From an uncultured Candidatus Saccharibacteria bacterium (lineage in GTDB: Bacteria > Patescibacteriota > WWE3 > UBA101185 > UBA10185): 64,000 nucleotides of DNA. Position numbers and translations under genes: made by a program. Below, in pieces: positions 5,418-64,000 of the stretch; position 1 is the first letter of the stretch, and every line of letters begins with the position of its first letter. The notes below the pieces were generated by a model that had not been told where the DNA came from, searched no databases, and worked only from the letters and a program-made list of their open reading frames with translations. The stretch covers positions 250,583-314,582 of the forward strand of contig CAYLMU010000002.1 of NCBI GenBank assembly GCA_964385105.1, in the 5' to 3' direction.

Positions 5418-6302
5418 ATGAAAAAAATTACAGCCATCTCATCACTTCTTGGAATAACTTTAGCCTTAATCGTTCTCAATACAGCTATACAAAAATATAA
5501 AATATTGCAAAAGCCTCCTGAAAGTGGCGATGAGCAAATCACTTATGTAAAATCTAATTTTCAGCCATTTTATCAACCAGAAGAAATTACTCAATCAAAC
5601 ATTATAAATTCTCAAAATATTAGAGGTGAATATGGCTTATATATTAAAAATCTAGTCACAGATGAATTACACGAGTACAACGCAGACAAAAGTTTTTATG
5701 GAGCTTCCCTTTATAAAATTCCAGTGTTTGTTGGTGTAATGAAAGCAGTCGAAGAAGGTGCTATTACTTTAAATACTGTCATTGAATACAAAGAACAGGA
5801 TTTTAATGAAGGAACCGGGATAATTTATCATAGCGGTTATGGCACAAAGTACACGGTTGAGGAACTTTTAAGCTTACTCATGAAACATTCCGATAACACG
5901 GCTCAAGCCATGCTTATTCGCTCAATCCCATCAAAATATATGACACAAGACATTTATCCTAATGACTTAAACTTAGGCAATTTTATAAATCAAAATCAGG
6001 TAACTCCGCGTGAGGTTGGCAATTTGCTCGAACAAATATATGAACATACCATACTAAATAAAGATGATTCTAAATTGCTCTTAAAATTTATGAGTGAAAC
6101 AGAATTTGACGATAGAATAAACAGCGGCCTTGATGATTCAAGGCTTTTCTCGCATAAAATCGGTAACTGGGGAGAAAGCGGTACATGGCATGATTGCGGC
6201 ATAATTTTATACCCTGAGCCTATTGTTGTGTGTTTAATGAGTGAAAATACAACTTTTGAAGACTTTTTAAATGTAAGCTCACAAATAGGCTCTCAACTGT
6301 AA
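5418..6302 (+). CDS. class A beta-lactamase-related serine hydrolase (secreted)
   Basis: Signal/anchor N-terminus; SxxK motif (SLYK), SDN motif (HSDNTAQ), K(T/I)G-like motif HKIGNWGE. Confidence 0.6.
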   Translation: MKKITAISSLLGITLALIVLNTAIQKYKILQKPPESGDEQITYVKSNFQPFYQPEEITQSNIINSQNIRGEYGLYIKNLVTDELHEYNADKSFYGASLYKIPVFVGVMKAVEEGAITLNTVIEYKEQDFNEGTGIIYHSGYGTKYTVEELLSLLMKHSDNTAQAMLIRSIPSKYMTQDIYPNDLNLGNFINQNQVTPREVGNLLEQIYEHTILNKDDSKLLLKFMSETEFDDRINSGLDDSRLFSHKIGNWGESGTWHDCGIILYPEPIVVCLMSENTTFEDFLNVSSQIGSQL

Positions 6303-6304
6303 AC

Positions 6305-6673
6305 TTATTTTTTAGAATGAAGAGAAATACGATTTCCTTCTGAATCCATAAATGTTGCCATATAACCGATTTCCTCCGACACGAGTGTTTTTGAAATTAC
6401 AATTGAACCACCTGCTTCTTCAACTTTTTCAAGTATAGTATTTAAGTCTTCGTCAACATGAAAATATATCAAAACACCATCTGAACTTGGAGAATACCAC
6501 TCTCCGGCAACAAGAGCACCTGACATAACATATTCTTCTGTTGGAAACCAAGCCATTTCAGTTTCACCTGTTTTAATTTTTTTAAACTCATAGCCAAAAA
6601 TTTGTGAATAAAATTTCATGGCTCTATCTAACTTAATAACGGGAATTTCAAACCAACTGAGCATATTTTTCAT
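6305..6673 (-). CDS. VOC family protein (glyoxalase/bleomycin-resistance fold)
   Basis: 122 aa; pattern WFEIPV...GALVAGEW...YFHVDD typical of glyoxalase-like domain proteins. Confidence 0.55.
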   Translation of the reverse strand: MKNMLSWFEIPVIKLDRAMKFYSQIFGYEFKKIKTGETEMAWFPTEEYVMSGALVAGEWYSPSSDGVLIYFHVDEDLNTILEKVEEAGGSIVISKTLVSEEIGYMATFMDSEGNRISLHSKK

Positions 6674-24682: not shown

Positions 24683-27076
24683 CTAATGGTCAGAATAAAC
24701 GTAATCAAACACTGCACGGGCAACTGTCTCTAGACTTTTTGCACTGCATTTATCAAGCGTATCTTCAGTGGTATGAAACGGTGGGTACTCAAAATCAATC
24801 AACAGAAAACTCGGCACACCTGCTTGATTAAGCGGCGTATGGTCGTCATTTATACTCTGCTTTACTTCGTCTCGGAAAACTCCACTATCTACTTTTTGAG
24901 CAATAGACCAGAATGAATCAACTTGTGATTTAGCATTTTGAACCGACGATTGTTCTTTATAAATTCTCAAATCTTTGTCACATACCATGTCAAGTACAAG
25001 CGCTGTTATTGGCTTATTGTTACCGTAAATTTCGTTTAAATGCTCGGAAAAATATGTAGAGCCAAGAGGCCTCCAATTACTGTAATCACTGCCTTGATTG
25101 ATATCTCCCTCTTCGCCGTCAAAGAACACCAAATCAACACCAACATTTGGTATTACATGAGAACTGCCCAATATCCGCGCGAGTTCCACGAGAACGGCCA
25201 CACCCGACGCCGAATCATTGGCTCCTGGCGTGGGTTGGTCATTTTTACTCCAATCTTTATCCGCAAATTTCTTGCTGTCGTAGTGAGTCGCCAAAATGAT
25301 GCGACGTTCTTGTGTTGGTTGTAAACGTCCAATAATATTCGTTAATTGGTATGTGTTGCCGTCCGTTGCTTTGTAATCCCAAGATTGAGTTTTGACTTCG
25401 TGGGTTTGTTCTTGCATTTCGGCAATCAAAAACTCCTGAACATTTTCGTGCCCCGTCGAACCCATATAACGCGGGCCATAACGTAATTGCTGGTCTATGA
25501 CTGCTAGCATCTCGTTGCCGTCAATAAATGGTTTTCTACTGACGGTTCGCCGGAGAACTTCGGCCGTGAGGTATTCAACGGGGGAATAATTATCAGTCAA
25601 AACGGGATATGGTGACAAGTCAAATCGCTGAAGATTGATAATTTTTGTTGGTAGCGAGCTAATGATTGGGTTTTCATTTTGCAAAATTAAGGGAGCGTTA
25701 AAATCCACTTTCTTGTCGCTGTTATAACCGACAAAAATTATATTTTGCGAATTTGTTTTTTTCGGAGTCTCGATCGCAAAAAAATAACTGTTGGGAAAAA
25801 TGCTCTGGAATGTTTTTATTTCCGCAAAAATAAGGGACGGCTGTTGCCGTGATAAATCTCCAATAAGATTGGCGACAAATACGCCGTCGTCAGACAACTT
25901 CTCCTTTGCAACAACAAAAAATTCCCGCGTTGTGAAATGAGCAGGAATTGAAAAAAGGGAGTAATAAACATCACTGAATATCAAATCATATTTCTTTTCG
26001 GAATCGCGAAGGAAACGGCGACCATCCTCTGTGTAATTATGCAAATTCGGATTGTCTTCAACTTTAAAATATTGTTTAGCTAAATCAAACAACGAAGGTT
26101 CAATCTCTGATACATCAATAGTCGCATTCGGCAATTCGGCAAGTAGTGCTTTTGGTATTGAATATGCGCCGCCACCTATAATGAGGGCATTTTTAACATC
26201 AGGATTAAAAATTTTGTAGAGCGAATAGTATTTTGTGTATCCATAGACTAAATCGGTCGGGTCATCCGTATCAAGAAACATTGCTCCGGAGGCACTCCTG
26301 TCTTGCTGAAAAATTCTTATTGGTCTACTTCCTTGCGTGCTGTCATAGATTGTAATTTTTTCATAAACCCCATCCTTGCTGTATAAAGCCTTTCCTTTAA
26401 TCTGTTGAACAGTAAAAGAAGCGACGCCAACAAAAATCAAAATAGCGAATGCTGATTTTATAAGTCTTTTTTTGTCAAAACCGAAAACAATAAGAGGAAT
26501 AAAGCCGAGTAGGAATAGAACAACACCTGTTGATATGAAAATATAATCTATGCCGAAATTTGGTATCAAGACGAAGCCGGCAAGCAGACTACCAATAATG
26601 CTTCCAAGTGTGGACCAAAAAAATATTTTTCCTGAAACACTGCCAACGCCCTGACCTGGTTCCTGAATGCTTTGTAGTTTTATCGCATAAGGCGACAAAG
26701 TACCAAGTAGTATAGCGGGCACGAGGAACAAAAGAGCAGAAGAAATGAGCGGGCCGCTGACGAGTGAAAAACTCAAGCTTAAAATCGGCAGTAATAGTAT
26801 GCCTAAAAAATGAATAACGACAACCACCAAACCGCTCACAAGAATAATTCCAAAAAACCACCGCATGGTCGGATGCTTATCGGCAAACTTCCCGCCCGCA
26901 TAATAACCAACACTTAAAGCCGCAAGTATGACACTGATTACGCTCGAAACAGTAAAAATTGTGTTGCCAAAATGTGGCGAAAGAACCCGAACAGCAACAA
27001 TCTCAATTATCAAGACACAAGCCCCGGTGATAAAAACGGAAATGGGAAGTAAATTTTGCTTTACAAATTGGTTCAT
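24683..27076 (-). CDS. tri-domain fusion: N-terminal polytopic membrane domain + spermidine-synthase-like (class I MTase fold) domain + C-terminal M28 zinc peptidase domain
   Basis: 8 TM N-term; ALIIGGGAYSIP...DVSEIEP nucleotide-binding fold like spermine/spermidine synthase; M28 motifs HYDS, GANDSASG, FFDGEEGD, HTTEDT. Confidence 0.65.
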   Translation of the reverse strand: MNQFVKQNLLPISVFITGACVLIIEIVAVRVLSPHFGNTIFTVSSVISVILAALSVGYYAGGKFADKHPTMRWFFGIILVSGLVVVVIHFLGILLLPILSLSFSLVSGPLISSALLFLVPAILLGTLSPYAIKLQSIQEPGQGVGSVSGKIFFWSTLGSIIGSLLAGFVLIPNFGIDYIFISTGVVLFLLGFIPLIVFGFDKKRLIKSAFAILIFVGVASFTVQQIKGKALYSKDGVYEKITIYDSTQGSRPIRIFQQDRSASGAMFLDTDDPTDLVYGYTKYYSLYKIFNPDVKNALIIGGGAYSIPKALLAELPNATIDVSEIEPSLFDLAKQYFKVEDNPNLHNYTEDGRRFLRDSEKKYDLIFSDVYYSLFSIPAHFTTREFFVVAKEKLSDDGVFVANLIGDLSRQQPSLIFAEIKTFQSIFPNSYFFAIETPKKTNSQNIIFVGYNSDKKVDFNAPLILQNENPIISSLPTKIINLQRFDLSPYPVLTDNYSPVEYLTAEVLRRTVSRKPFIDGNEMLAVIDQQLRYGPRYMGSTGHENVQEFLIAEMQEQTHEVKTQSWDYKATDGNTYQLTNIIGRLQPTQERRIILATHYDSKKFADKDWSKNDQPTPGANDSASGVAVLVELARILGSSHVIPNVGVDLVFFDGEEGDINQGSDYSNWRPLGSTYFSEHLNEIYGNNKPITALVLDMVCDKDLRIYKEQSSVQNAKSQVDSFWSIAQKVDSGVFRDEVKQSINDDHTPLNQAGVPSFLLIDFEYPPFHTTEDTLDKCSAKSLETVARAVFDYVYSDH

Positions 27077-27176: not shown

Positions 27177-27252
27177 TGGTGGGGAGGGTGGGAATCGAAC
27201 CCACATAGCCGGTTTTTCAGACCGGTGCCGTGACCGCCTTGGCTACCGCCCC
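27177..27252 (-). tRNA. tRNA-Phe (anticodon GAA)
   Basis: Anticodon loop CTGAAAA, T-arm GTGGG-TTCGATT-CCCAC, CCA encoded; acceptor has one C5:T68 mismatch and a 3-bp D stem. Confidence 0.8.
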
Positions 27253-27356: not shown

Positions 27357-28538
27357 TTAAAAACGTAGCAATGCTGCAATCTTATACTCATTGTCTAAGT
27401 CGTCAAACTCACCGTTTTCTATAGAAAAAACTCTTCCACCATTGGCTAAAGTATGAATAATACTAAAATTTACCAAATTGGTTAAGTTTTCATTCGTGAT
27501 TCCATTAATCACACCTTCTTTAATTTTAACGTTATTGTTTTGTTCATCATATCTGCCAAAAACAGTAAACTCTTTATCAACAAATAGTGTGTCAATACGC
27601 TGTTGAAATGCATTAGTTACTATTTCAGGTACATTTGCTATAGCCAAATTAGTGCCTAAAGCATCTTTAAACCTATTTACGTGTTTGAGTCTATTATCAT
27701 GATATTCGTCAAGAACTTTATTCCAAATTCGATCTTTTATGTTTTCTATATTAAGTAAATCAGGATTTTTGCTTATGAGCCTGTTGTATACATTAGGGTA
27801 TTCGGTAACCTCTTTAAACATTGCATAATTAGGAGCATCAGTTACTAAAATTAAGGGAAGCTCTTTGTTTTTAAATACTTCATTTAGGTCATCATCAATT
27901 TTATTTATAAAACGCCTTAAGTTTTCTTTTTTGGCATCATCATAAGCACCATGCCCATGATAAATGGATCCTCCTGATGAACCTGGCCCAACAGCTTTAC
28001 TCGAAGTATGTTGGATACTTTTCTCTGGGTCATCCATCCACAACGCTTCATCTATATTTTTTGCAACATTGCTTGTGTCAAGCTCTTCAAGATACCTGTT
28101 TGTACCTTTGAATGCCTTTACTCTTTTCTGGCTTAACAATAGTACATAATACTCAAGGTCAAGCTCCAAAAAAGGAACTAAAGGTTTAATATTAAATTTC
28201 TCACTAACATACACTAATTCTTTAAATTCAGTGGGTAATATAAAGTATTCAAAACTTTTTTCGGATGCAAAAATAGCCAGGCCTTCCTGCATGGAGTACC
28301 AAAAAGTTTCATCTGTACGCACTTCTTCCAAAAAGTCATTTAGTCTATTAATAATTTTTTCGTTTGTAAGTGACATTTGTGACTCGTTAACAAGGTTTTT
28401 TAGTCTGATTTTGGATTTTTCGTTTTCTTGCCAGACTCTATAAGTTTTCATATATAAAGATAATTTTTCTCCTTGGGATCTATTAGTTATTAGGTCTATA
28501 ACTTTAGTGCGAATACTGGGTTGATGAAGCAGTTTCAT
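27357..28538 (-). CDS. eRF1/Pelota-like domain protein (bacterial archaeo-eukaryotic release factor-like, baeRF), tentative
   Basis: C-terminal ...ANGGRVFSIENGEF...KIAALLRF resembles eRF1/Dom34 domain-3 terminus (GG...AILRY); Gly-rich central loop VGPGSSGGSIYHGHG; no GGQ. Confidence 0.35.
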   Translation of the reverse strand: MKLLHQPSIRTKVIDLITNRSQGEKLSLYMKTYRVWQENEKSKIRLKNLVNESQMSLTNEKIINRLNDFLEEVRTDETFWYSMQEGLAIFASEKSFEYFILPTEFKELVYVSEKFNIKPLVPFLELDLEYYVLLLSQKRVKAFKGTNRYLEELDTSNVAKNIDEALWMDDPEKSIQHTSSKAVGPGSSGGSIYHGHGAYDDAKKENLRRFINKIDDDLNEVFKNKELPLILVTDAPNYAMFKEVTEYPNVYNRLISKNPDLLNIENIKDRIWNKVLDEYHDNRLKHVNRFKDALGTNLAIANVPEIVTNAFQQRIDTLFVDKEFTVFGRYDEQNNNVKIKEGVINGITNENLTNLVNFSIIHTLANGGRVFSIENGEFDDLDNEYKIAALLRF

Positions 28539-52696: not shown

Positions 52697-53256
52697 ATTG
52701 CTGTTTCTAATATAGATTCCTTCTTTTTACGTCTCCTTTCGATTATCTTTTTTAACTCATTTCTAATACTGATAATTTCACTATAAACTATGAGTGTCGA
52801 TGGAATAATTATAAGTGCAATTAAACCTAGCTGGGTTCTTGCAAAAACCACGGGATAACCCAATAAAGGCACACTAAATAAAACTTTACCTACAATCCGA
52901 TCTGCACTAATTAATTCTCCGTCAGGAGCATCATTAGCGTCCCCTTTTGTTCTAAACATCATTTCTCCGTCTTCACGTATTATTTCAAAAACTCTGTGAG
53001 TTGTAGTAGAAGCAGGATTGTCTAAGTTCGGGTCTGAATCCATTGTAAAGGTTATCACATCGCCTGCACTGTATACATCAACAGCTTTAACTGCAACTAT
53101 GCTGCCGGTTTTAATTGCAGGCTCCATAGAACCACTTTGAACAGTGTATAATTTATAACCTCCCGGTATGTCTAATATCGATGCAGCAACAACGCCTGCT
53201 GTAATAACTAGTAACAAGATTATGAAAATGTATAAAATATTAATAATGCTTTTCAT
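52693..53256 (-). CDS. sipW: signal peptidase I, archaeal/ER type (SipW-like)
   Basis: N-terminal TM, SGSMEP catalytic Ser motif, conserved His (TTHRV), GDAND motif, C-terminal TM anchor. Confidence 0.7.
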   Translation of the reverse strand: MKSIINILYIFIILLLVITAGVVAASILDIPGGYKLYTVQSGSMEPAIKTGSIVAVKAVDVYSAGDVITFTMDSDPNLDNPASTTTHRVFEIIREDGEMMFRTKGDANDAPDGELISADRIVGKVLFSVPLLGYPVVFARTQLGLIALIIIPSTLIVYSEIISIRNELKKIIERRRKKKESILETAI

Positions 53257-53326
53257 ACCTGCTCCTTGCTAATTGATATCTTAATAGCCCTCGCAAGTAC
53301 ACTTACAAGGGCTTTAAAACATCAAG

Positions 53327-53905
53327 TTAATTACTTCTTGCCTCTATAACAAAATCCCATGTTAATTCTGAACCCATCAAAGATCCTTGATCTGAACCAC
53401 TTTCGGGTAAGTACACGGTGTACCGCATATCCTGTGTGCTCCCAACAATCAATTCACTCCAATGCCCGGCAAACAAATCAACATCTATTAAATCCTCTAA
53501 CTTACCTTCATAAACGGTATGCTCCATTGCACCACTAAGTCTTCCTACTTCTATTCTAATCATTACTTTCTGCCATAACCCGGATCCATTGTCGTTTGCA
53601 TTTTCAACATTAAGCACTAAGCTTTTTGCGTCAACAGAACTTGGTCCTGCGAACCAGGGAGGGCCATAGTTTTGTAGTGCATATACCGGTGATACCGATC
53701 CGTCCTCGAATCCATCAACCGGAACAACTCCTGTGAATGTTGCACCAACTACAGTTGGCTCACCATTAACTCGTAATTCCAGTGCACCGGTTGATAGTGT
53801 ATTACCGGTGATTGTAGCTGTATCTGAGAAATATGCTCTGGTAGCACCAATACTTGATGCTGTCATCAGTGTAATTACTACTAGACTTAATATTATTTTT
53901 TTCAT
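53327..53905 (-). CDS. TasA/camelysin-like secreted protein with SipW-cognate class signal peptide
   Basis: N-terminus MKKIILSLVVITLMTASSIGATRAYFSDTATITGNTLSTGALEL matches SipW-cognate signal class (G-T-x-A-Y-F-S/T-D-T-x...N-x-F/L-x-x-G-x-L-x-L). Confidence 0.65.
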   Translation of the reverse strand: MKKIILSLVVITLMTASSIGATRAYFSDTATITGNTLSTGALELRVNGEPTVVGATFTGVVPVDGFEDGSVSPVYALQNYGPPWFAGPSSVDAKSLVLNVENANDNGSGLWQKVMIRIEVGRLSGAMEHTVYEGKLEDLIDVDLFAGHWSELIVGSTQDMRYTVYLPESGSDQGSLMGSELTWDFVIEARSN

Positions 53906-53949
53906 TTCTTCTCACCTCCCACCAGATTAATTTTATACAAATTCCTTAA

Positions 53950-54744
53950 TTAAGGAAGTGTTGCTTCTTGCTTTGCAATTTGAGCATTCATCCAACTTGT
54001 GTGATTAGATCCGGGTCCACTGAGTCTTGGCTGAGAACTAAACAATGCATCCAATGCACCAGAGTCAACCTGTGTTGCATGAACAGTGTATGATAAATCT
54101 AGTGATTTACCCATATAGGTGTTGTCAGCATCCGGATGCATAGCTAGCTTAAATGTAAATCGGTACTTAAAGTCGTCATTAGCTAACAACGATCCCATTT
54201 GAACACCTCCACCTGCTCCCATTGCATTAGCATTGTTCCAAGAATTAAGAGAGACTACTTGAAACGGTGTTGAGTTATTGGCAAGAGTTTGGTAATAGGA
54301 GTTCCATGAATGACCGTTAAGTCCTGACACATTACCTGTACCATTAAGAATAAACTGATCAGTACCAGTAGGTTCCCAATTTCCATTTGGCACAAGAAAT
54401 TCGGTTTTTGCTTCTTTGATATATATAGCATCACCAAGCGCTGCATCACCGGTTAAAGTAAAGTAAGCAACCCACCCAAGGTCAATATTTCCATCATTAA
54501 CTATTTCCACAGTAAAATCTGGGGTTTCTTCACCCGGCTCCAAAACCATATCTGGAAGCGTCCAAGTAAAGGTTTCTTCTGAAACTTCTTCTGTGCTACC
54601 GTTCACACTAACCGTAAATGAACCGGTTGATAAGGTTCTTACATCTCCCAATACTGCAGTGTCGGTTAAATATGCTCGGGTTGCACTAAATATAAGCCCT
54701 GAAGCACCAATTAACAAAGCAAAACTTAATAATAGTCTTTTCAT
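53950..54744 (-). CDS. TasA/camelysin-like secreted protein with SipW-cognate class signal peptide (larger paralog)
   Basis: N-terminus MKRLLLSFALLIGASGLIFSATRAYLTDTAVLGDVRTLSTGSFTV; beta-rich mature domain. Confidence 0.65.
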   Translation of the reverse strand: MKRLLLSFALLIGASGLIFSATRAYLTDTAVLGDVRTLSTGSFTVSVNGSTEEVSEETFTWTLPDMVLEPGEETPDFTVEIVNDGNIDLGWVAYFTLTGDAALGDAIYIKEAKTEFLVPNGNWEPTGTDQFILNGTGNVSGLNGHSWNSYYQTLANNSTPFQVVSLNSWNNANAMGAGGGVQMGSLLANDDFKYRFTFKLAMHPDADNTYMGKSLDLSYTVHATQVDSGALDALFSSQPRLSGPGSNHTSWMNAQIAKQEATLP

Positions 54745-55044
54745 TATTTTTCACCCCCTTTAGTCAAAAACAAGTACAAAAAAGCCAGCTTTTTAAAGAC
54801 TGGCATTAGTTTTTGTATATTAATTTTGTATTATTCTTCATAATTTGAATTAAGAATCCTAGTACGTAAACTGTGTTTCCGGAAAGAAAATACTCGATAG
54901 TCTAATACTATGAGATTGGTTACTACTTGTCAAATAGTCATAGATTTTAGAATTATTGATAAACCAACTAAATTAATTGTTTCATAGATCACAGATTTTA
55001 ATATTTCTTCGTCGTTATAATAAATTATTTCTGAGTAGTAATAT

Positions 55045-55568
55045 TTAAATTATAAATGTAGATTGAATTCCATAATGATCCGATATATAAACTTCTTTAT
55101 CCTTATAATGCACCGGCTGCGAAAAAACTGTTTCCTGTTTTATTAATGAATTCTTAAAACCCTTAAATAGTGTGTAATCATATCTTTTGTCACTTTTAAT
55201 CCATCTACGAGCAAGTGAACTTACGGTTGGATTATGCATATCAAATGTGATAGCGTCTTTTTCATATAATGGGTCATACAAATCTCCTCTGTGTCCTCAT
55301 GCCTCCATGTCTTGTCTTTTGTATTTAACGAATTTACTGTCTACCGGGGTATTATAATAAATTCTGAAGAACTTGTAATCCTATAGTTCATGGCACTTAC
55401 ATTGGTGTATTCGAACTGAGAGTTACATACTAAAAGTTTTGACATAAAAAAAAGACCATGCTTCTCTCGGGATTTCTCCTTTGATTGCATGGTCAAACTA
55501 AACCTAACAAACAAAACAAAGTCTAAGACACTGCTACAAGTTGCAACAACAGAGTGCCTTTCTAACAA
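55045..55568 (-). pseudogene. degraded endonuclease/exonuclease/phosphatase (EEP) family gene remnant
   Basis: C-terminal fragment 55045-55281 ends ...VYISDHYGIQSTFII (SDHxPV-type EEP terminus); upstream fragment MSKLLVCNSQFEY in another frame interrupted by stops. Confidence 0.35.
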
Positions 55569-55584
55569 AACTAACAGGATTGGT

Positions 55585-56211
55585 TTATATCATGCACCAA
55601 TCTGCTTCAGAGTCCTCGCCAAGGTAATCGATACAAGACTGCCGGAATGCCTGACGACGAAGCGTTTTCTCCCTTTCAATCAGTTCTTGCATCAACCACT
55701 TTTCGAAGCGGCTCAGAGTAGCCAAACCTTTGTCCCTGGAGATTAATCGATCAATGTCAGATACATAGCCAGAAAGGTACCCTACTTCTGTATGGAGCAG
55801 GCGAAGATACAACTTGCTGCCGTACTTGGTACCAGCGATCACAACGAGGAAGAAGTCTTTTATACCCATTTCGAGCACACCACGAAAGGTTCTATCGGAC
55901 TCCTTTTTCACGATCTTGATCAACTCGACAACGACAATTTGCAAGACACTCAAAAGAACCTTCAGTTTCGGAGGGGTTTCTACCGAATTCTTCTGGTATT
56001 TTCCAAGCGCTTGCAGTACCCGGGAATCTTCCTCAAGGGAATCCAACAACAGGTCGAAAGCTACATCGGCCTCCGAGGAACTTCCATCGTGATGCAACGC
56101 GACTAGTCTTCTGAGGATTTCAACCTCATTAGGATCTAGACCATAAATGGCTACTACACTATCAAACACTTTCTGGTTCATCACAACCTCCCTAATATAT
56201 ATAGTGTGCAA
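55585..56211 (-). CDS. hypothetical protein (208 aa), GC-rich island
   Basis: ORF in compositionally atypical DNA. Confidence 0.35.
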   Translation of the reverse strand: MHTIYIREVVMNQKVFDSVVAIYGLDPNEVEILRRLVALHHDGSSSEADVAFDLLLDSLEEDSRVLQALGKYQKNSVETPPKLKVLLSVLQIVVVELIKIVKKESDRTFRGVLEMGIKDFFLVVIAGTKYGSKLYLRLLHTEVGYLSGYVSDIDRLISRDKGLATLSRFEKWLMQELIEREKTLRRQAFRQSCIDYLGEDSEADWCMI

Positions 56212-56370
56212 CTCCCATAATTATAGTAGAAATATGGGCACCGGTCAACCTATAGTTTTGGAGTCTCTTACGGTGTGTTGATCGAACTTAAAGAAATTTA
56301 GTTGAGTTGATGAAATGAAAAAGCCCAGAGATTTCACCCAATAAACGGTGTGCTCCAGGCTTTATACAAA

Positions 56371-56871
56371 TCAAGGATTGAAGTAAGCATCCCAAAACTC
56401 AGGATCATTTATCTGCTCTTCCCACCCCTCTAAACAATCGCACAAACCCATGTCTTTAAGGCACAGTTCACACTTTCCATAGTTTTCATCTCTGTCATAG
56501 GCCAAAGACCAAGGATGGTTTGCGGTATCTCTAAAGAGGTACCTAGTTAACCATTCTCTAACTTCCGGAGTAGAGTCGAACTTATCGCCTTTATTATAAA
56601 CTGTTTCTCGAGCGCCATCGAAATCGCCTAGCAAAAGCTGATGAGCAATATCTCTCGCAACCTGACTACCTCTTCCACTGTTAAGCGGCCCTTGCAGCTT
56701 ATGAAGCTCCTTAGACAGAAACCTCGGTGTAAGTTCAATCCAAAACCGCAAGTTTTCTTGTTCATGTATAAGTCCTATGCTGTGAAGAGCTGATTCCAAA
56801 TCTGGGCCTTCAATCTCTTCAATCTCTCCACTACGCCAAGTAAGCCGATATATAGGCATCACTTCCTCCAA
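56371..56871 (-). CDS. hypothetical protein (166 aa), GC-rich island
   Basis: ORF; C-terminal Cys cluster CELCLKDMGLCDC. Confidence 0.35.
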   Translation of the reverse strand: MEEVMPIYRLTWRSGEIEEIEGPDLESALHSIGLIHEQENLRFWIELTPRFLSKELHKLQGPLNSGRGSQVARDIAHQLLLGDFDGARETVYNKGDKFDSTPEVREWLTRYLFRDTANHPWSLAYDRDENYGKCELCLKDMGLCDCLEGWEEQINDPEFWDAYFNP

Positions 56872-56879
56872 AATTACAG

Positions 56880-57170
56880 CTAAAGTCGATAAACAGGATA
56901 AGATCCGGTGCGAATAGCGTATGCAACTTCAGGATCACTCGGATCAACAGGTGTGGCTATCACAGTGTCGACCACAAGTGCACGACACTTCCCACAGTCC
57001 CATTTTCTACCACCCAACTCATCTGTTGGAAGAACATCATTACTTCCACACGCTACATGGGTGAATACCACATAAATATGGTTGTAAACGGGAGAGTCAA
57101 GAACCTTCAGTAACTTATATGCGAAATCCTTGACCAATATCCTAACACGCCATTTAAGTAACTCTAGCAT
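56880..57170 (-). CDS. hypothetical protein (96 aa), possible zinc-ribbon (CGSND...CGKC)
   Basis: ORF with two Cys pairs. Confidence 0.3.
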   Translation of the reverse strand: MLELLKWRVRILVKDFAYKLLKVLDSPVYNHIYVVFTHVACGSNDVLPTDELGGRKWDCGKCRALVVDTVIATPVDPSDPEVAYAIRTGSYPVYRL

Positions 57171-57244
57171 TCCTATGCTCCTTGTTCGGTTTTTAATACG
57201 CAGTTATTATAATAAATTCTAGAGTGTTTGTAAACCTATAGTCT

Positions 57245-57320
57245 TGGGGTGACCGACGGGGATCGAACCCGTGACATCCGCCTCCACAGGGCGGCGTTCT
57301 ACCGCTGAACTACGGCCACC
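57245..57320 (-). tRNA. tRNA-His (anticodon GTG) with genomically encoded G-1
   Basis: Extra 5' G pairing with discriminator C73, D-stem GTTC/GAAC, anticodon loop CTGTGGA, T-loop TTCGATC, CCA encoded. Confidence 0.9.
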
Positions 57321-57413
57321 ATATCTTGCAAAAAAGCCATTTTTCAACTTAAAAAGCATTGAAATTATAACACACAGTACATTAAGCACACTTTTGTTAT
57401 AAACAAAAAAGAC

Positions 57414-58844
57414 TTAGTTTAAAATGTCCGATGTTGTACTCCAGTTTGAAAAATCCAAAAACCTATCGGTGGCTGTAAAAGTATATTTTTCACCAATCCC
57501 CCTTATTGAATCGCTGACATAAAAGTTTTTATATGGGTGATACAAAAACACTGCCGGAACCTGTTCTAAAATTACTTTTTGAAATTCATGATAGTGTACA
57601 AGTCTGTCATCATATTCTAAAGCAATTCTACCCTCTTCAAGCGCTCGATCTGCTCTAACATGTTCAAATAATGAAAGGTTTAATCCCGGATTGTATTTTT
57701 GAGTTGAGTGCCAATTAATATATCTATCAGGGTCACGGCCAATTTCTTGCCCGTAAAGTAATATTTGATAATTTCTCGGGTTCACAACTTCATCAACAAA
57801 AGTTTCAGGATTATGTTTTTGAATATTTACTTGTAGGTTTAGCTTGTCTTCCCAATATTTTCTTATTATCCTTGCTGTTTCTTCATGCTGCTTTAAATCG
57901 GGAATTGTGAGAGTTACACTTTGTCCCACATAATTTACTTTAAGATTCTCATCATGTGTATCAAAAATTAAGTTAGGGTCGGTAAACAAACTTCTGCTTA
58001 TTGGGCCTTGTACAAAAATTCCTTTATTAAAAACAATTTCGTCTACATTAATAGAATTCTTGAGATTTTCCCTAAATGCAATATCAGCCATAGCCTCGTT
58101 TTCCAAATTAAAAAATAACGAAAAGTATATTCCTTGCAATGGAAATCTATGGTTTGAAAAGTTTTCAAGGTCATCATGTACGTCATTACTCATAAACGCG
58201 TCAATTTCACCAAGTCGGACTGCTGTTACAAGCTCATCTTCATTACCGTAATACCGAAATGTCATTTTTTTTATATAATCTTCTTCATTTTCGTTTAGCA
58301 AAACTACTTCTTTAATTACCGGACCACTACGCGAGATTCTCAGCACTCTAAACGGTCCGCTTGATACAGGTGTTAAGGAATTAAACTTTTCTTCAGAGTC
58401 TGCCTGCATAACCCCAACCGTCAATAAATCCAAAAATGGCGAAAATCCGTTTGGCAAAATATATCTAACCGTTAAATCATCAACTTTGTCTGTACCTACA
58501 CCCTGAAGATCGGGATATTTGTATGAAGTATAAATTAAGTCATCGGCAGTTATTTGCCTACCATCAGACCAAAACTGATTATTTTTTATTTTAATCGTAT
58601 AAACAAGACCGTCGTCTGAAATTGCCCATGTTTCAGCCAAGTCAGGAACAAGTTTGCCATAAATATCATACTTAAAGAGTCCACGATAAATTAAATCTGA
58701 AATTGTTTTGTCATTTTGGCTTATAGCTTGATGTGGCAAAAATGAGGTTGGTTGCCCCACAACACCTTCAACATACCTTGTGGTAGGCATTAGGGCGAGC
58801 AGAAACGAAGATAGGTAAAAACCTATTCTTTGAAGTATTTCCAT
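57414..58844 (-). CDS. ABC transporter substrate-binding protein, family 5 (oligopeptide/dipeptide-binding-like), orphan
   Basis: Signal/anchor N-terminus; SBP_bac_5-like pattern (LVPDLAETW...YTIKIKNNQFWSDG); no adjacent permease/ATPase. Confidence 0.65.
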   Translation of the reverse strand: MEILQRIGFYLSSFLLALMPTTRYVEGVVGQPTSFLPHQAISQNDKTISDLIYRGLFKYDIYGKLVPDLAETWAISDDGLVYTIKIKNNQFWSDGRQITADDLIYTSYKYPDLQGVGTDKVDDLTVRYILPNGFSPFLDLLTVGVMQADSEEKFNSLTPVSSGPFRVLRISRSGPVIKEVVLLNENEEDYIKKMTFRYYGNEDELVTAVRLGEIDAFMSNDVHDDLENFSNHRFPLQGIYFSLFFNLENEAMADIAFRENLKNSINVDEIVFNKGIFVQGPISRSLFTDPNLIFDTHDENLKVNYVGQSVTLTIPDLKQHEETARIIRKYWEDKLNLQVNIQKHNPETFVDEVVNPRNYQILLYGQEIGRDPDRYINWHSTQKYNPGLNLSLFEHVRADRALEEGRIALEYDDRLVHYHEFQKVILEQVPAVFLYHPYKNFYVSDSIRGIGEKYTFTATDRFLDFSNWSTTSDILN

Positions 58845-58921
58845 ATCAGCGTTATTTTACCAAAATAGTGGCAATATGAGAAAATCCCGGCATTTTTTAC
58901 AATAACCGGGATTTGCAGAGT

Positions 58922-59497: not shown

Positions 59498-59572
59498 GGC
59501 CCCATCGTCTAGTGGTTAGGACATCAGGTTTTCATCCTGGTAACCGGGGTTCGATTCCCCGTGGGGTCACCA
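59498..59572 (+). tRNA. tRNA-Glu (anticodon TTC)
   Basis: Acceptor GGCCCCA/TGGGGTC, D-arm GTCTAGTGGTTAGGAC, anticodon loop TTTTCAT, T-loop TTCGATT, CCA encoded. Confidence 0.9.
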
Positions 59573-61028
59573 TAGTGGAATTTCCAACACTAACTAGTTC
59601 GTTTAGCTCTACAATACAGGATTTAACAGGAGTTGTTAAATTTCCATTCAAATATACAATTCCATCAGGAAATAGTATTTTTTGCAACTTGTGTTTTGGA
59701 ACAATATCTAACTTTTCCCATTTTTTAGTCATACCAGTTAAAAACTGTAAACTATAGTTTAGTAGCTCTTCAGTCAGTACACTTGGATGTGCATACTTTG
59801 TAGTCTCTAGGTTCAGGTCAACAAGTTCTTTTTCAAACTCTGCCAATTTACTTTTAGCTAACTTGTCGCTGTATACACCGTTTATATTCTTTTCAACTAC
59901 CTTATCCTGTAACTGTTTTATTTCAACCCTTCTTTTTTCAATTGAAAGTAACTCTTTCTCGTACTTTTTACGATGACTTTCCCAATTTAGTATAAGAGCC
60001 TCCTTAATGATGGAAATGGTCTTAGAATTGAAATTAAGTGCTTCTATGTAGGCTTTAAATATGGGTTCTACAATATTTTTATTGATGTTAATACCCCTAC
60101 AATCTGTACATCTATAATGCCCTTGATTCTTTTTAGCCCAACTTGCAGTCATATACTTACCACAATGACATCTTAATGTACCTCTTAGTGGAAAGTCAGG
60201 ATTTAGCTTTTTGTATACGGGTAGTTTCTTTTTCTTTCCATCTAATATAACCTGCACTTTGTCAAAAACCTCTGGTTTAACAATTGCTTTAAAACTACCC
60301 TTTTTATATACGCCCATACTAGGTACATCAATCCAACCCTTATATACGGGATTTCTTAGCATTTTGTGAAAGTGGGATGTTGTTAATGCTTTTCCATTCT
60401 TTTTTGTTAAGCCCCAGGACTTACCCAACTGTCTTACCTCTTCAACGGTATTGTACCTCCTGTATATACAATCAAAAACTTTTCTGATAGGTTTTTCTAA
60501 TTCAGATAATGGTTCAATGTTTGAACTACCTTTTTCTCCAACAGTTTTAAATCCATAAGGTGCTTGAAAAGTCCATCTACCTTGTTTTAGAGCTTCTATC
60601 ATTCCATTTTTACTCCTCTCGCCTCTTATCTCGTTATCTAACTGCGCAATACCCGAAAGTGTATGTTCAATAAACCTACCTAACGGATTATCTTCAATTG
60701 GTTCTGTTATAGAAATAATCTGTACTTTACATGAAGTAAAAAATGTTTTTAAGGTTGCGTAATCAAAGGAATCTCTAGATAAACGGTCAATCTTGTATAT
60801 TAGTAAAACATCAATTTTACCTTCATTAAGTTTGCAATACTTCATCATCTTTTTGAGTTGTGTTCTATCTACTGTCTTTGCACTTTCACCCTCTTCAACA
60901 AACACTTTATCAACTGAATAGCCATTATTTTTAGCATAGCTTTTACACAATCTCTCTTGGGAGGCTAAACTGTTACCTTCAAACGCTTGTTCTGTTGTGG
61001 ATACTCTACAGTATATTATGGCGTTCAT
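59532..61028 (-). CDS. large serine recombinase
   Basis: N-terminal IIYCRVSTTEQ...SLASQ (catalytic Ser), DRLSRD motif, recombinase domain, Cys cluster CHCGKY...YRCTDC; last 41 nt overlap tRNA-Glu 3' half (C-terminal GIEPR translated from T-arm). Confidence 0.85.
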   Translation of the reverse strand: MNAIIYCRVSTTEQAFEGNSLASQERLCKSYAKNNGYSVDKVFVEEGESAKTVDRTQLKKMMKYCKLNEGKIDVLLIYKIDRLSRDSFDYATLKTFFTSCKVQIISITEPIEDNPLGRFIEHTLSGIAQLDNEIRGERSKNGMIEALKQGRWTFQAPYGFKTVGEKGSSNIEPLSELEKPIRKVFDCIYRRYNTVEEVRQLGKSWGLTKKNGKALTTSHFHKMLRNPVYKGWIDVPSMGVYKKGSFKAIVKPEVFDKVQVILDGKKKKLPVYKKLNPDFPLRGTLRCHCGKYMTASWAKKNQGHYRCTDCRGININKNIVEPIFKAYIEALNFNSKTISIIKEALILNWESHRKKYEKELLSIEKRRVEIKQLQDKVVEKNINGVYSDKLAKSKLAEFEKELVDLNLETTKYAHPSVLTEELLNYSLQFLTGMTKKWEKLDIVPKHKLQKILFPDGIVYLNGNLTTPVKSCIVELNELVSVGNSTMVTPRGIEPRLPG

Positions 61029-61189
61029 TTTTTCACCTCACATTTCTCTTCCAAGTAGCATTGAAGTATAAATTGAGCAAACTCATCTACAGCTTTTGAT
61101 ACTTCTTGTATTTTATCCTCGTTTTTTAAACTTGTACTTTTTTTGATTGCCTTAGCAATCTTTTTGAGTCTTTGTGTTTCATCACTCAC
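61025..61189 (-). CDS. small ORF (54 aa, GTG start) overlapping recombinase start codon (ATGA), possible directionality factor/regulator
   Basis: Hand translation VSDETQRLKKIAKAIKKSTSLKNEDKIQEVSKAVDEFAQFILQCYLEEKCEVKK; stop TGA shares bases with recombinase ATG. Confidence 0.2.
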   Translation of the reverse strand: MSDETQRLKKIAKAIKKSTSLKNEDKIQEVSKAVDEFAQFILQCYLEEKCEVKK

Positions 61190-61287
61190 GACTAGAATCT
61201 CCTAGCCTGTTTGAGTGCCTCTCAACACAAGACTTAAAACATTTAATTACTTGCTACTATCCTGTTAGGTTGTTGCTAACTCAGATA

Positions 61288-62133
61288 TTAGACTTTTATT
61301 ACATCTTCAAATTGATAATTTACAATCTTTCCATCTCTCTTTTGAACTTTTATATTGCTAAACTCCTTCTTTTTCATAATTTCAATAATTTCATCTTCAG
61401 TCAGTTCTTCAGCACCCTTTGTATTTTCACCATATACTTTATATGTACCTTTTCCTCTCATTATTGTGACTTTTGAGTAGTCTTTGTGTCTGATAATCTT
61501 AACAATTTCTAATTGTTCTTTTGTTAGATTGACAGCTTCAAAGAACCTCTCAAAGTCTATCAAAGGCGGATATTCCTTAAATTTTTTAACTAAATCTTTG
61601 TTTGCTGATTGCTCTAATGTCTTCCGCACTACTTCATTAAAGTTTAGGTGTAAAAATCCTGTTGATTCTGGTCTAGCCCAACCCTGAAAATACAATAAAC
61701 CAACTTCATCGCAAAACATTGATTTTCCATCAGGAAATAAAAGCCAAGACACTCTTAAGCCTTGTAATACTGCGTATATTGCTACTTCACCCCATATCAG
61801 TTCGTCACTTTGGAAAAGTGTCTCATCTTTCATTCCTTCATAGTAGAAATCATTCTTTAATGTTTTGAGTTGTTCATTTTTAATACCATACTTCCTACAT
61901 TCCATTATCATCATGAGATATATAACATCTTTTAGACTGAATGTACGCCATTTACCTTCTTGTTCTTGGGTATTTACCAATACATCACTTGCATCCAAAC
62001 TTGTTATTTGTCTATAAGAAAGTGTAGTGTCTGCAACTCTAAATCTTTTACCTCTTAGAATATCTAATAATTTTGGATTTTTTCCTACTGCTCTTATTGT
62101 TGCAAATATGTAACCGTCACTAAAGTTAATCAT
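61288..62133 (-). CDS. hypothetical protein (281 aa) within integrated element
   Basis: ORF only; located between recombinase and helicase-nuclease. Confidence 0.35.
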   Translation of the reverse strand: MINFSDGYIFATIRAVGKNPKLLDILRGKRFRVADTTLSYRQITSLDASDVLVNTQEQEGKWRTFSLKDVIYLMMIMECRKYGIKNEQLKTLKNDFYYEGMKDETLFQSDELIWGEVAIYAVLQGLRVSWLLFPDGKSMFCDEVGLLYFQGWARPESTGFLHLNFNEVVRKTLEQSANKDLVKKFKEYPPLIDFERFFEAVNLTKEQLEIVKIIRHKDYSKVTIMRGKGTYKVYGENTKGAEELTEDEIIEIMKKKEFSNIKVQKRDGKIVNYQFEDVIKV

Positions 62134-62192
62134 AAAATATACCTCTATGTATACTTTATAACACTATTGAAATTATACGGTCAAGTATATTT

Positions 62193-64000
62193 TTATGTAA
62201 TCTCGTTGAATACTTTAGAGAACTCCTGTTTTGTCATTTCCTCATTGTAAAAAGGTAAACCTACAAGTGTATATTCTCTGTCGTTATAAATAATTTCAGG
62301 CTTCGCCCTATCTCCCAATTCTAAAAGAAAATCCTGTTTCCAAGAGTCTAGGCTAAAGAGCTGTTGTCCTTTAGGCTCAACAAACAATTGCAGATATAGT
62401 TTCTTGTCATCCTTTTTATTATTTAAAAACAGTACAAAATCAGGTTCAAAAACTCTTCCATCCTCAAAGTTATAAAGTTTAAAAGCATTGGCATTTCTTA
62501 CTAAGAATATCTCATCATACTTATTCTTGAGTTCTTTATAAGCGTTGTCTATAAATTTTACAAAGTATTTTTCTTCCGATGTTCCAAAGTTGTCCTTGTA
62601 CGCATACCAGTCATTGTCTAAGATATCTAGATTAAACAATGGGTCTTGTGAGTACTGCATACTTTTACCAAATTGAGCATCGCTTGTATCATCTGTTGCA
62701 ATCTTTAATACTTTATCCTCGAAGATTTCAGAAACTCCTTTGGCTTTAAACTCATAAGTGCCTATATACTCTTCATTATCTGATTCTATTTGCCCTTGTA
62801 TTTCTCTTAGAATCTCAAGTGCTATATCTAGCTTTTCATCTTGAGTCATATTCTCAATAAATCCATTAGAACCATGTATTTCAACTTCAATCTGTTCAAA
62901 GAAACTTGGCACAGAATCTAACGATTTTATATTGGGAGTATACTTTTTCAGGTTGCTTAATCTATAAAATTCATTCTTATCCATTGCTTTTCTTATAACA
63001 TTAGAACCTAATTCAAGAAGTTTTAGTGTCTTTGACTTATCGGGTGCAAGTGATTCTACCTGAGATTCAAATACGATTGTTTCTCTGGTATAACCTGTGT
63101 GTAAGTTGTACTTATAGGAAGTCTTTATGTTGTAGTCTTCAAAGCTTGATTTATTCTTGTTAAGGTTTTTCTCCTTGTTATTTAGATATAAAATTCCTGT
63201 CTTCCAAAAATCAGATTCTTTAAAACTTTTCTTTAGCGTTAGTTCTTGCTCCTCTTCGAGTTGTGCCTTTATTCCCGTTTCCTTTAACGCCTGTGTTAAT
63301 TCTGAAATGTATTTTGGATTATAAGCACTGTGATAGTAAAGTTCTTCTAGTATTCTTAAGCTATTACTTATATCCTCGTCATATTTTCTCTTGTGTTTAT
63401 CCTGTTCCGCATTTAAGGAGAATGGGTAATATCGTGCACCTCTACCAATTAGTTGAGCTTCTGACATTGTTGTTTTTCCTACTCTACCTGACCTTGCATC
63501 TCTAGTATCATACAATCTAACAATATCGAACAAATTAAGAACATCCCATCCCTCATTAAGCTTATCTACGGCAAATATGGCTCTAATTTGGTTGTTTTCA
63601 TCCTCAAGCGTATTTACTAAAACTTGTTTCTCATCACTTTCATTTTTTGAGTTCACAGATATGCATTTCTCAGGTGAAAAGTCTTCTTGAAGTTCCAATA
63701 CTAGGCTTTCCAAATCTATGTTGTTTTCTTTAAAGTAGTGAAATGCCTTAGCAAGAACACCATTATTTTTACTGGCAACTTTCTGTATATCCGTGGCTTT
63801 GATAGTTGAAACAAATTCATGAAAGGCTTCTTCAAATTCCTCAGATGCTGATATGGTTTTTGATTTAAATAATATGACTGGTTTTAGAAATACTTTCTTA
63901 TCCTGAGCTACTTTTAAACGATATTGGCTCAAAATCATGGCTTGTAAAGCTCTTGTAAGGTTGTCTGTGTCAGTTTCTAGTACCTTAACATCCTTGGAGT
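62193..64000 (-). CDS. SF2 helicase + PD-(D/E)xK nuclease protein, Type III restriction Res-subunit-like (N-terminus beyond window)
   Basis: Helicase motif VI QLIGRGARY; C-terminal nuclease-like motifs FEPDFVLF ... LFVEPKG; reading frame stays open upstream of listed Met to the window edge. Confidence 0.5.
   Translation of the reverse strand, partial: SKDVKVLETDTDNLTRALQAMILSQYRLKVAQDKKVFLKPVILFKSKTISASEEFEEAFHEFVSTIKATDIQKVASKNNGVLAKAFHYFKENNIDLESLVLELQEDFSPEKCISVNSKNESDEKQVLVNTLEDENNQIRAIFAVDKLNEGWDVLNLFDIVRLYDTRDARSGRVGKTTMSEAQLIGRGARYYPFSLNAEQDKHKRKYDEDISNSLRILEELYYHSAYNPKYISELTQALKETGIKAQLEEEQELTLKKSFKESDFWKTGILYLNNKEKNLNKNKSSFEDYNIKTSYKYNLHTGYTRETIVFESQVESLAPDKSKTLKLLELGSNVIRKAMDKNEFYRLSNLKKYTPNIKSLDSVPSFFEQIEVEIHGSNGFIENMTQDEKLDIALEILREIQGQIESDNEEYIGTYEFKAKGVSEIFEDKVLKIATDDTSDAQFGKSMQYSQDPLFNLDILDNDWYAYKDNFGTSEEKYFVKFIDNAYKELKNKYDEIFLVRNANAFKLYNFEDGRVFEPDFVLFLNNKKDDKKLYLQLFVEPKGQQLFSLDSWKQDFLLELGDRAKPEIIYNDREYTLVGLPFYNEEMTKQEFSKVFNEIT

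Follow-up and report, generated by a model that had tools for sequence, protein, structure and literature searches.

The 64,000-nucleotide (nt) stretch of contig CAYLMU010000002.1 analysed here, referred to as the window, carries an island of about 1.9 kb (55350-57268) immediately 3′ of an intact tRNA-His gene. The island was interpreted as a decayed and now immobile islet formed by two successive tandem insertions at the 3′ end of tRNA-His, a reading to which a probability of roughly 0.5 was assigned. An initial annotation of the same DNA had proposed horizontal acquisition at a tRNA site, and this proposal gained support: guanine-plus-cytosine (G+C) content at third codon positions, tetranucleotide usage and repeats of the tRNA end suggest that the island DNA was probably acquired horizontally, at that site. 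Two units lie in tandem on the minus strand, unit A running from promoter P1 through P0003 and P0002 to a terminator and unit B from promoter P2 through P0001 to a terminator. The full order is tRNA-His with repeat copy 1 (P1), P0003-P0002, terminator, copy 2 (P2), P0001, terminator, copy 3 (P3) and ORF78. The features of the island, in that order, are listed below.

57245-57319, minus strand: intact tRNA-His(GTG) with encoded CCA (ARAGORN; Rfam RF00005, 66 bits, E = 4e-13)
57205-57268, minus strand: repeat copy 1, with T-loop GTTCGATC, tRNA-His 3′ end, ACTATAGG and promoter-like TTTACA-17-TATAAT (P1, 11/12)
56880-57170, minus strand: P0003, 96 amino acids (aa), Shine-Dalgarno AAGGAG
56371-56859, minus strand: P0002, 162 aa
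56314-56363, minus strand: intrinsic-terminator-like hairpin and U-run ending unit A (-23.9 kcal/mol, z = -4.3, 0/200 shuffles as good)
56220-56287, minus strand: repeat copy 2, with degenerate tRNA-3′-like relic (GTTCGATC...CCGT..G..AC.CCAA), ACTATAGG and TTGACC-17-TATAAT (P2, 11/12)
55585-56181, minus strand: P0001, 198 aa, Shine-Dalgarno GGGAGG
55446-55494, minus strand: intrinsic-terminator-like hairpin GACCATGC...GCATGGTC followed by T8, ending unit B (read from the sequence; present in the minimum-free-energy fold)
55350-55416, minus strand: repeat copy 3, with GTTCGAAT, degenerate relic, ACTATAGG and ATTACA-17-TATAAT (P3, 10/12); far end of the island

Base composition

Mean G+C of the window was 34.8%, with a standard deviation of 2.7% among 1-kb windows. 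In the sliding-window and tetranucleotide comparison that the initial annotation had put forward as a check, the deviation was found on both counts. Segment 55585-57170 reached 43.8% G+C (z = +3.65 against all same-length windows), the top value of the window, with a runner-up of 40.9% among same-length windows outside the island. Tetranucleotide usage of 55501-57200, normalised for base composition, correlated with that of the window at r = 0.34 (mean 0.645, standard deviation 0.104), so that the segment ranked among the lowest 0.5% of windows. The island had been described as about 45% G+C against flanks of about 30%; the value for the island itself and that of the left flank (54745-55349, 29.6%) are in keeping with this, but the right flank (57320-58905) stands at 34.3% and the contrast was overstated.

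The excess resides in third codon positions, where G+C was 0.51 for P0001, 0.39 for P0002 and 0.36 for P0003 versus 0.28±0.05 for 57 ORFs (open reading frames) of the window; it reaches +4.6 standard deviations, and the P0001 value is the most foreign-looking of the window. A further rise in G+C at 53000-54500 was ruled out as part of the island. This patch encodes two camelysin-like secreted proteins whose first and second codon positions are G+C-high, and it was judged native because their third positions are ordinary (0.27-0.29); the raised G+C of these genes stems from amino-acid content and not from third positions.

Transcription units

The three co-directional ORFs of the initial annotation (96, 162 and 198 aa, minus strand) were recovered, each with an ATG start led by a Shine-Dalgarno sequence, and the placement of the island at the 3′ end of tRNA-His was correct, the tRNA gene occupying 57245-57319 and the first island ORF (P0003) beginning 74 nt past its 3′ end. 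P0002 starts 21 nt past the P0003 stop, and the two were therefore assigned to a single operon. Promoters and terminators were predicted by consensus scan and folding, as was the whole promoter, Shine-Dalgarno and terminator architecture of the units, from which the island genes would be expressed. For the hairpin of unit B, the fold of the whole 91-nt segment around it gave a z of only -1.8.

The island ORFs show codon-position structure, and this, together with the homologues of P0002 and with Rfam matches to tRNAs only, ruled out a non-coding RNA in place of genes. An assembly chimera was ruled out likewise, the junctions being spanned by three independent run-level contigs, two of which (L001 and L002) match the window at 100% identity and the third of which (L022) crosses the junction on the copy 3 side. 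Within P0001, at about 55956-55974, a break occurs in both of two independent unitig assemblies of run SRR9016296 (L001 and L022), which overlap there by only about 19 nt; this break may reflect a population variant inside unit B.

The three-copy repeat at the tRNA-His 3′ end

The two units are bracketed by three copies of a repeat of about 65 nt, in which a T-loop-like GTTCGA is followed by ACTATAGG and then by a near-consensus -35/17/-10 promoter. In copy 1, which is the genuine 3′ end of tRNA-His, GTTCGA is the real T-loop; the repeat reaches about 45 nt past the tRNA gene. A partial repeat of the tRNA-His 3′ end, which the initial annotation had suggested might lie near 55300-55600, is present at 55350-55416, and a further copy was found at 56220-56287. 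Together with the -35 hexamer, ACTATAGG occurs exactly three times in 64 kb, each time inside the island and on the minus strand, and P1, P2 and P3 are the three top sigma-70-like sites of the consensus scan within 54000-58000. GTTCGA sits 26-31 nt upstream of ACTATAGG in 3/3 copies and in the same orientation; the composite GTTCGAWY-N14-26-ACTATAGG, a pattern set post hoc, gave 3 matches versus 0.00 expected. Copies 1 and 3 share a 38-nt direct repeat of 84% identity at a spacing of 1855 nt, with a score matched by 0/500 shuffles, and copy 2 matches the tRNA-His 3′ end at 77% identity across 30 nt.

These likenesses bear on the number of insertions. A single 1.86-kb element bounded by copies 1 and 3, in which copy 2 would be an internal promoter of the element's own type (ACTATAGG plus sigma-70-like core), would account for copies 1 and 3 being far more alike than either is to copy 2, and for the similar overall G+C of unit A (0.426) and unit B (0.435). 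An internal promoter needs neither GTTCGATC at the matched offset nor a likeness to tRNA-His, however, and copy 2 has both; third-position G+C also differs between the units (0.36-0.39 versus 0.51). One insertion was regarded as unlikely.

Proposed origin

For the reading with two insertions, we infer the following mechanism and order of events. Two small circular DNAs would have entered the region from the T-loop of tRNA-His to its downstream side by successive Campbell-type insertions, through recombination that was either site-specific, with a recombinase acting in trans or since lost, or based on short homology. Each insertion would have duplicated its target, leaving every unit with a worn copy of the integration-site sequence at its end, and a copy of the promoter would have stayed with the inserted genes as well as with the resident gene downstream. 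Selection would then have kept the promoter halves, and the tRNA halves, once displaced, would have decayed: the better conservation seen in the promoter part of the repeat would be expected if each copy still drives a gene and the tRNA fragments are free to decay. A search of viral contigs for an attP, made with the tRNA-His 3′ end, found solely complete tRNA-His genes in phage tRNA arrays, and this candidate was rejected.

Island proteins

The initial annotation had found no recognisable motifs in the three proteins. This stands for named families: Pfam, PHROGs, PADLOC and NCBIfam gave no match to P0001, P0002 or P0003, bar one weak PADLOC match of P0001 to the coiled-coil part of HsdS, a type I specificity subunit (15.6 bits, partner gene absent), beyond which the island proteins match none of the PADLOC-DB defence models. 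It does not stand for P0002, for which 22 remote homologues were recovered. The Cys clusters noted in two of the ORFs were confirmed, P0003 carrying a putative zinc-ribbon-like H38-x2-C41...C59-x2-C62 and P0002 having C130-x2-C133-x6-C140-x-C142 in its tail.

Each of the three proteins matched only itself among 5.8 billion proteins in a word-prefiltered (word-indexed) search; the exhaustive HMMER search covered P0002 only, P0001 and P0003 being compared through the word index. With tblastn, none of the three matched phage records (50,697) or plasmid records, the whole island had no blastn match in plasmid records, and IMG/VR scanned with P0001, P0002 and the family alignment of P0002 (A2) yielded nothing. 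PDB sequence searches with P0001 and P0003 were empty, and P0001 was absent from the contig index. P0001 is predicted to be all-helical, its single-sequence AlphaFold2 model being uninformative (predicted local distance difference test, pLDDT, 44), and the coding status of P0003 rests on its ORF, Shine-Dalgarno sequence, promoter and codon-position G+C pattern. As a best guess, the island proteins would serve as small accessory proteins in binding or regulation, with zinc bound by the Cys clusters of P0003 and P0002; a role as defence system, toxin-antitoxin pair or enzyme found no support.

The P0002 family

Sequence comparison places P0002 in an unnamed family of small proteins. The 22 homologues were obtained when phmmer (HMMER) was run exhaustively against 1.84 billion cluster representatives, at E values from 6e-11 to 7e-4, and all of them align solely to residues 47-122 of P0002 (nt 56494-56721). 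The 46-aa N-terminal extension (residues 1-46) and the 40-aa Cys4 tail (residues 123-162) are unique to P0002, the family members being helical and mostly of about 96 aa, which is the core alone. Alignment A2 gave the motif L..LQ...N.GRG...L..GD...AR....N..DKF...P.I..W...LF.....HPW. P0002 aligns to the family over the whole core at 30-45% identity, retains the N-x-G-R-G, D-K-F and H-P-W motifs, and has all the invariant or near-invariant residues (N60, G62, G64, A83, D92, K93 and P116).

The remote-homology and structure check put forward in the initial annotation was thus productive for P0002, with a core family and a compact helical domain modelled by AlphaFold2 with A2 at pLDDT >90 (with uncertain termini, Cys4 tail included), but left P0001 and P0003 without a detectable homologue. 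No relative of the P0002-core family was found in Pfam, PHROG or PDB, and a Foldseek comparison of the P0002 model with PDB and BFVD yielded nothing at E<0.7. As a by-product, the analysis delivered an undescribed family of small helical proteins (about 23 members when clustered at 50%), a candidate for registration as a new domain of unknown function.

Family loci in other contigs

About a dozen family loci were recovered from metagenomic contigs, with aminoacyl-tRNA synthetases, RNase J, GreA, glycosyltransferases and many small unknown ORFs as neighbours. From these neighbours, and from the length of the one contig of 1.1 Mb, we infer that the family hosts are small-genome bacteria like those of the candidate phyla radiation (CPR). 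Across the loci, no neighbour is conserved and none is akin to P0001 or P0003, so that the island trio is not a recurrent module, and a conserved three-gene module was ruled out. The 'candidate novel system' of the initial annotation thus found no support: the genes lie in two separate transcription units, two of them have no detectable homologue, and the homologues of P0002 lack conserved neighbours. Nothing points to a new mechanism or to a new multi-gene system.

Direct repeats flank three family loci, and two loci lie directly behind tRNA genes. The closest homologue of P0002 is P0007 (contig L006; 38% identity), which like P0002 has extra sequence at both ends. Its gene lies in a 909-bp cassette of G+C 0.49 (third positions 0.49) in a contig of 0.38, with a promoter of its own (TTGAAA-17-TATAAT). 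On one side of the gene stands a small membrane-protein gene and on the other a convergent tRNA-synthetase gene, and a 32-nt direct repeat (30/32 identical; 5654-5685 and 6563-6594, 909 nt apart) encloses it, both copies being a perfect terminator hairpin (AAGACCAAAAGC....GCTTTTGGTCTT). At contig L013, the family gene (2174-2755) lies between two Fic-domain genes, with direct repeats of 50 nt (84% identity) and of 23 nt on its flanks. Directly upstream of it stands a 60-aa CxxC...CxxCC zinc-ribbon ORF (1919-2101), as P0003 precedes P0002, this being the only other locus in which a zinc-ribbon ORF precedes the family gene. Several TCCGATAAC / GTTATCGGA copies at L013 resemble operator half-sites. 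In contigs L009 (3857-4256) and L010 (223-623), the family gene starts 18-19 nt past the CCA of tRNA-Ser(GGA) and has no Shine-Dalgarno sequence, which suggests that it may be co-transcribed with tRNA-Ser and translated from a very short leader.

On the sequences of these loci, candidate cassettes that are self-contained, repeat-flanked and compositionally foreign recur for the P0002 family. It is conceivable, at very long odds, that P0002-type genes ride minimal promoter-gene-terminator cassettes of about 0.5-1 kb in small-genome, CPR-like bacteria, recombinase-less and mobilised in trans (for example by serine integrases, which are common in these genomes), which would form an undescribed class. 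Such cassettes would insert beside structured DNA or RNA elements (here the T-arm of tRNA, at L006 the terminator hairpin), and their insertion would duplicate a target of 30-65 nt, so that cargo and resident gene would both keep regulatory signals.

Possible native origin of the island genes

Several observations weigh against two insertions of mobile DNA. The dinucleotide signature of the island is less extreme than its tetranucleotide usage, at the 90th percentile. As the initial annotation had stated, no integrase remains inside the island, and none of its ORFs matches a recombinase; searches of the island ORFs against Pfam, PHROG and NCBIfam also returned no transposase, phage or plasmid gene. 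Each unit is shorter than 1 kb, far below the size of any autonomous element. No donor and no homologue were found in the phage, plasmid and IMG/VR collections, and the species collection holds no related genome that could display the empty site; a genome scan for relatives returned a lone match, 21% identical, from Halanaerobiales. In copies 2 and 3, the tRNA-like stretch is too worn for pairwise significance (p = 0.06 and non-significant), and the case for tRNA relics rests on GTTCGA at the matched offset. The repeat is conserved better past the tRNA than within it, which is unusual for attachment (att) sites and equally compatible with a local duplication of the promoter. Homologue-less genes are common across this genome, and the lack of homologues of the island genes therefore says little.

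The island may alternatively hold native, lineage-specific and fast-evolving small genes of a poorly sampled lineage behind a locally duplicated promoter, with a G+C set by amino-acid content or expression level. The proteins of the region give it some backing, 6/6 of those tested being singletons at 90% identity, among them a clearly native solute-binding protein, and so do the lack of a related genome in the species collection and the many other window ORFs without a Pfam match. Most family members of about 96 aa are also host-like in G+C within their own contigs, and the two that lie 18-19 nt behind tRNA-Ser are apparently resident. Native origin was nevertheless considered unlikely. The G+C excess of the island lies in third codon positions, with the maximum of +4.6 standard deviations given above, tetranucleotide usage is in the lowest 0.5%, the gene of the closest homologue, P0007, likewise stands out in G+C as an island within its contig, and the tRNA-like relics at the unit boundaries would be left unexplained.

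Neighbouring genes

The gene downstream of copy 3 had been described as a decayed EEP-family remnant, and this was not confirmed.

55045-55281, minus strand: ORF78, started by TTG behind a Shine-Dalgarno sequence at poor spacing, in low-G+C DNA downstream of copy 3

ORF78 had no Pfam match at E≤10 (including EEP, PF03372) and no PDB relative, and its sole link to EEP was one annotated EEP gene that tblastn matched without significance (E = 2). Its sequence shows 'SDH' at the C-terminus and an 'RYDY', which are no test of EEP identity.

A serine integrase located 2.2 kb from the island, by tRNA-Glu, had been missed in the initial annotation. It is a large, phage-type enzyme (59532-61028, minus strand; Resolvase, Recombinase and Zn_ribbon_recom domains; phrog_95, E = 2e-73) whose last ~13 codons overlap, in antisense, the 3′ half of tRNA-Glu(TTC) (59498-59572). 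The window's most deviant dinucleotide signature lies at 60400-63900 (delta* 150-160 versus a mean of 70), and the region 60400-63938 with the serine integrase is probably a second, separate integrated element that runs off the end of the window. The island could instead be what remains of a larger prophage or integrative element, mostly deleted together with its integrase and maybe kin to the element by tRNA-Glu. The moron-like architecture of the units (criteria of PMC2920897) and the proximity of a phage-type integrase adjoining so deviant a signature speak for such a remnant. No island protein has a PHROG match, however, and neither the 50,697 phage records nor IMG/VR gave a match; native-looking genes (SBP_bac_5, third-position G+C 0.27) stand between integrase and island, and recombinases known to target tRNA genes are all of the tyrosine class (PMC4383910). 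This origin was held to be improbable.

Beyond copy 3 and ORF78, the segment 52693-54744 carries a gene resembling S24-type signal peptidases (weak Pfam match) and, after it, genes for two camelysin/TasA-like (Peptidase_M73) proteins with signal peptides. Elsewhere in the window, an ORF of 797 aa at 24683-27076, with spermine/spermidine-synthase-like and Peptidase_M28 domains, forms the second-highest G+C patch (0.40-0.42; third-position 0.37) and ends by tRNA-Phe (27177-27252), and a baeRF protein (archaeo-eukaryotic release-factor-like; Pfam baeRF_family3, E = 1.6e-35) is encoded at 27357-28538, adjoining the same tRNA gene.

Comparison with known systems

Integron cassettes resemble the island in being small recombinase-less units in tandem, parted by repeated sequence. 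They are usually promoterless, whereas each unit here has a predicted promoter of its own. The island also differs in having no IntI integrase, and imperfect palindromes of the attI/attC type were judged absent, no model search having been made for them.

Phage 'morons' are reportedly a concept of Hendrix and Juhala. Working criteria for them are a promoter and/or terminator of their own, a differing G+C, a position between phage genes and presence in more than one phage (PMC2920897). By analogy, the island cargo may behave like morons, with its own promoter and terminator and its foreign composition: the units hold one or two genes with a predicted sigma-70-like promoter and factor-independent terminator, and their G+C differs from that of surrounding genes. 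Unlike morons, they neighbour a tRNA gene, an SBP_bac_5 gene and camelysin-like genes and not phage genes, and they have no match in phage records or IMG/VR.

A known parallel of the two-insertion reading is the tDNA (tRNA-gene) island. Such islands are delimited by a regenerated tRNA gene and a displaced 3′ fragment (Islander, PMC4383910), crossover falls most often in the T-stem region, arrays in tandem are known, and tyrosine recombinases are the sole class known to target tDNA (PMC4383910). The present island differs in length (1.9 kb versus typically several kb or more), in the heavy degeneracy of its putative displaced fragments, and in a repeat that runs about 45 nt past tRNA-His and is best kept there; its ORFs gave no Pfam, PHROG or NCBIfam match to a tyrosine recombinase. 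It shares with tDNA islands the intact tRNA gene at one end (tRNA-His, 66 bits), the tandem arrangement and the foreign composition, and plausibly also direct-repeat fragments from the T-arm onward elsewhere. These candidate fragments are co-oriented with the tRNA gene, with GTTCGA in 3/3 copies and 77% identity over 30 nt in copy 2, the tRNA-like parts alone being non-significant. The feature is an ordinary one, a small, probably horizontally acquired tRNA-gene islet of a known kind. It offers a clean small example of how tRNA genes gather foreign DNA even in a reduced, poorly sampled genome, and of how inserted genes can bring, or copy, a working promoter.

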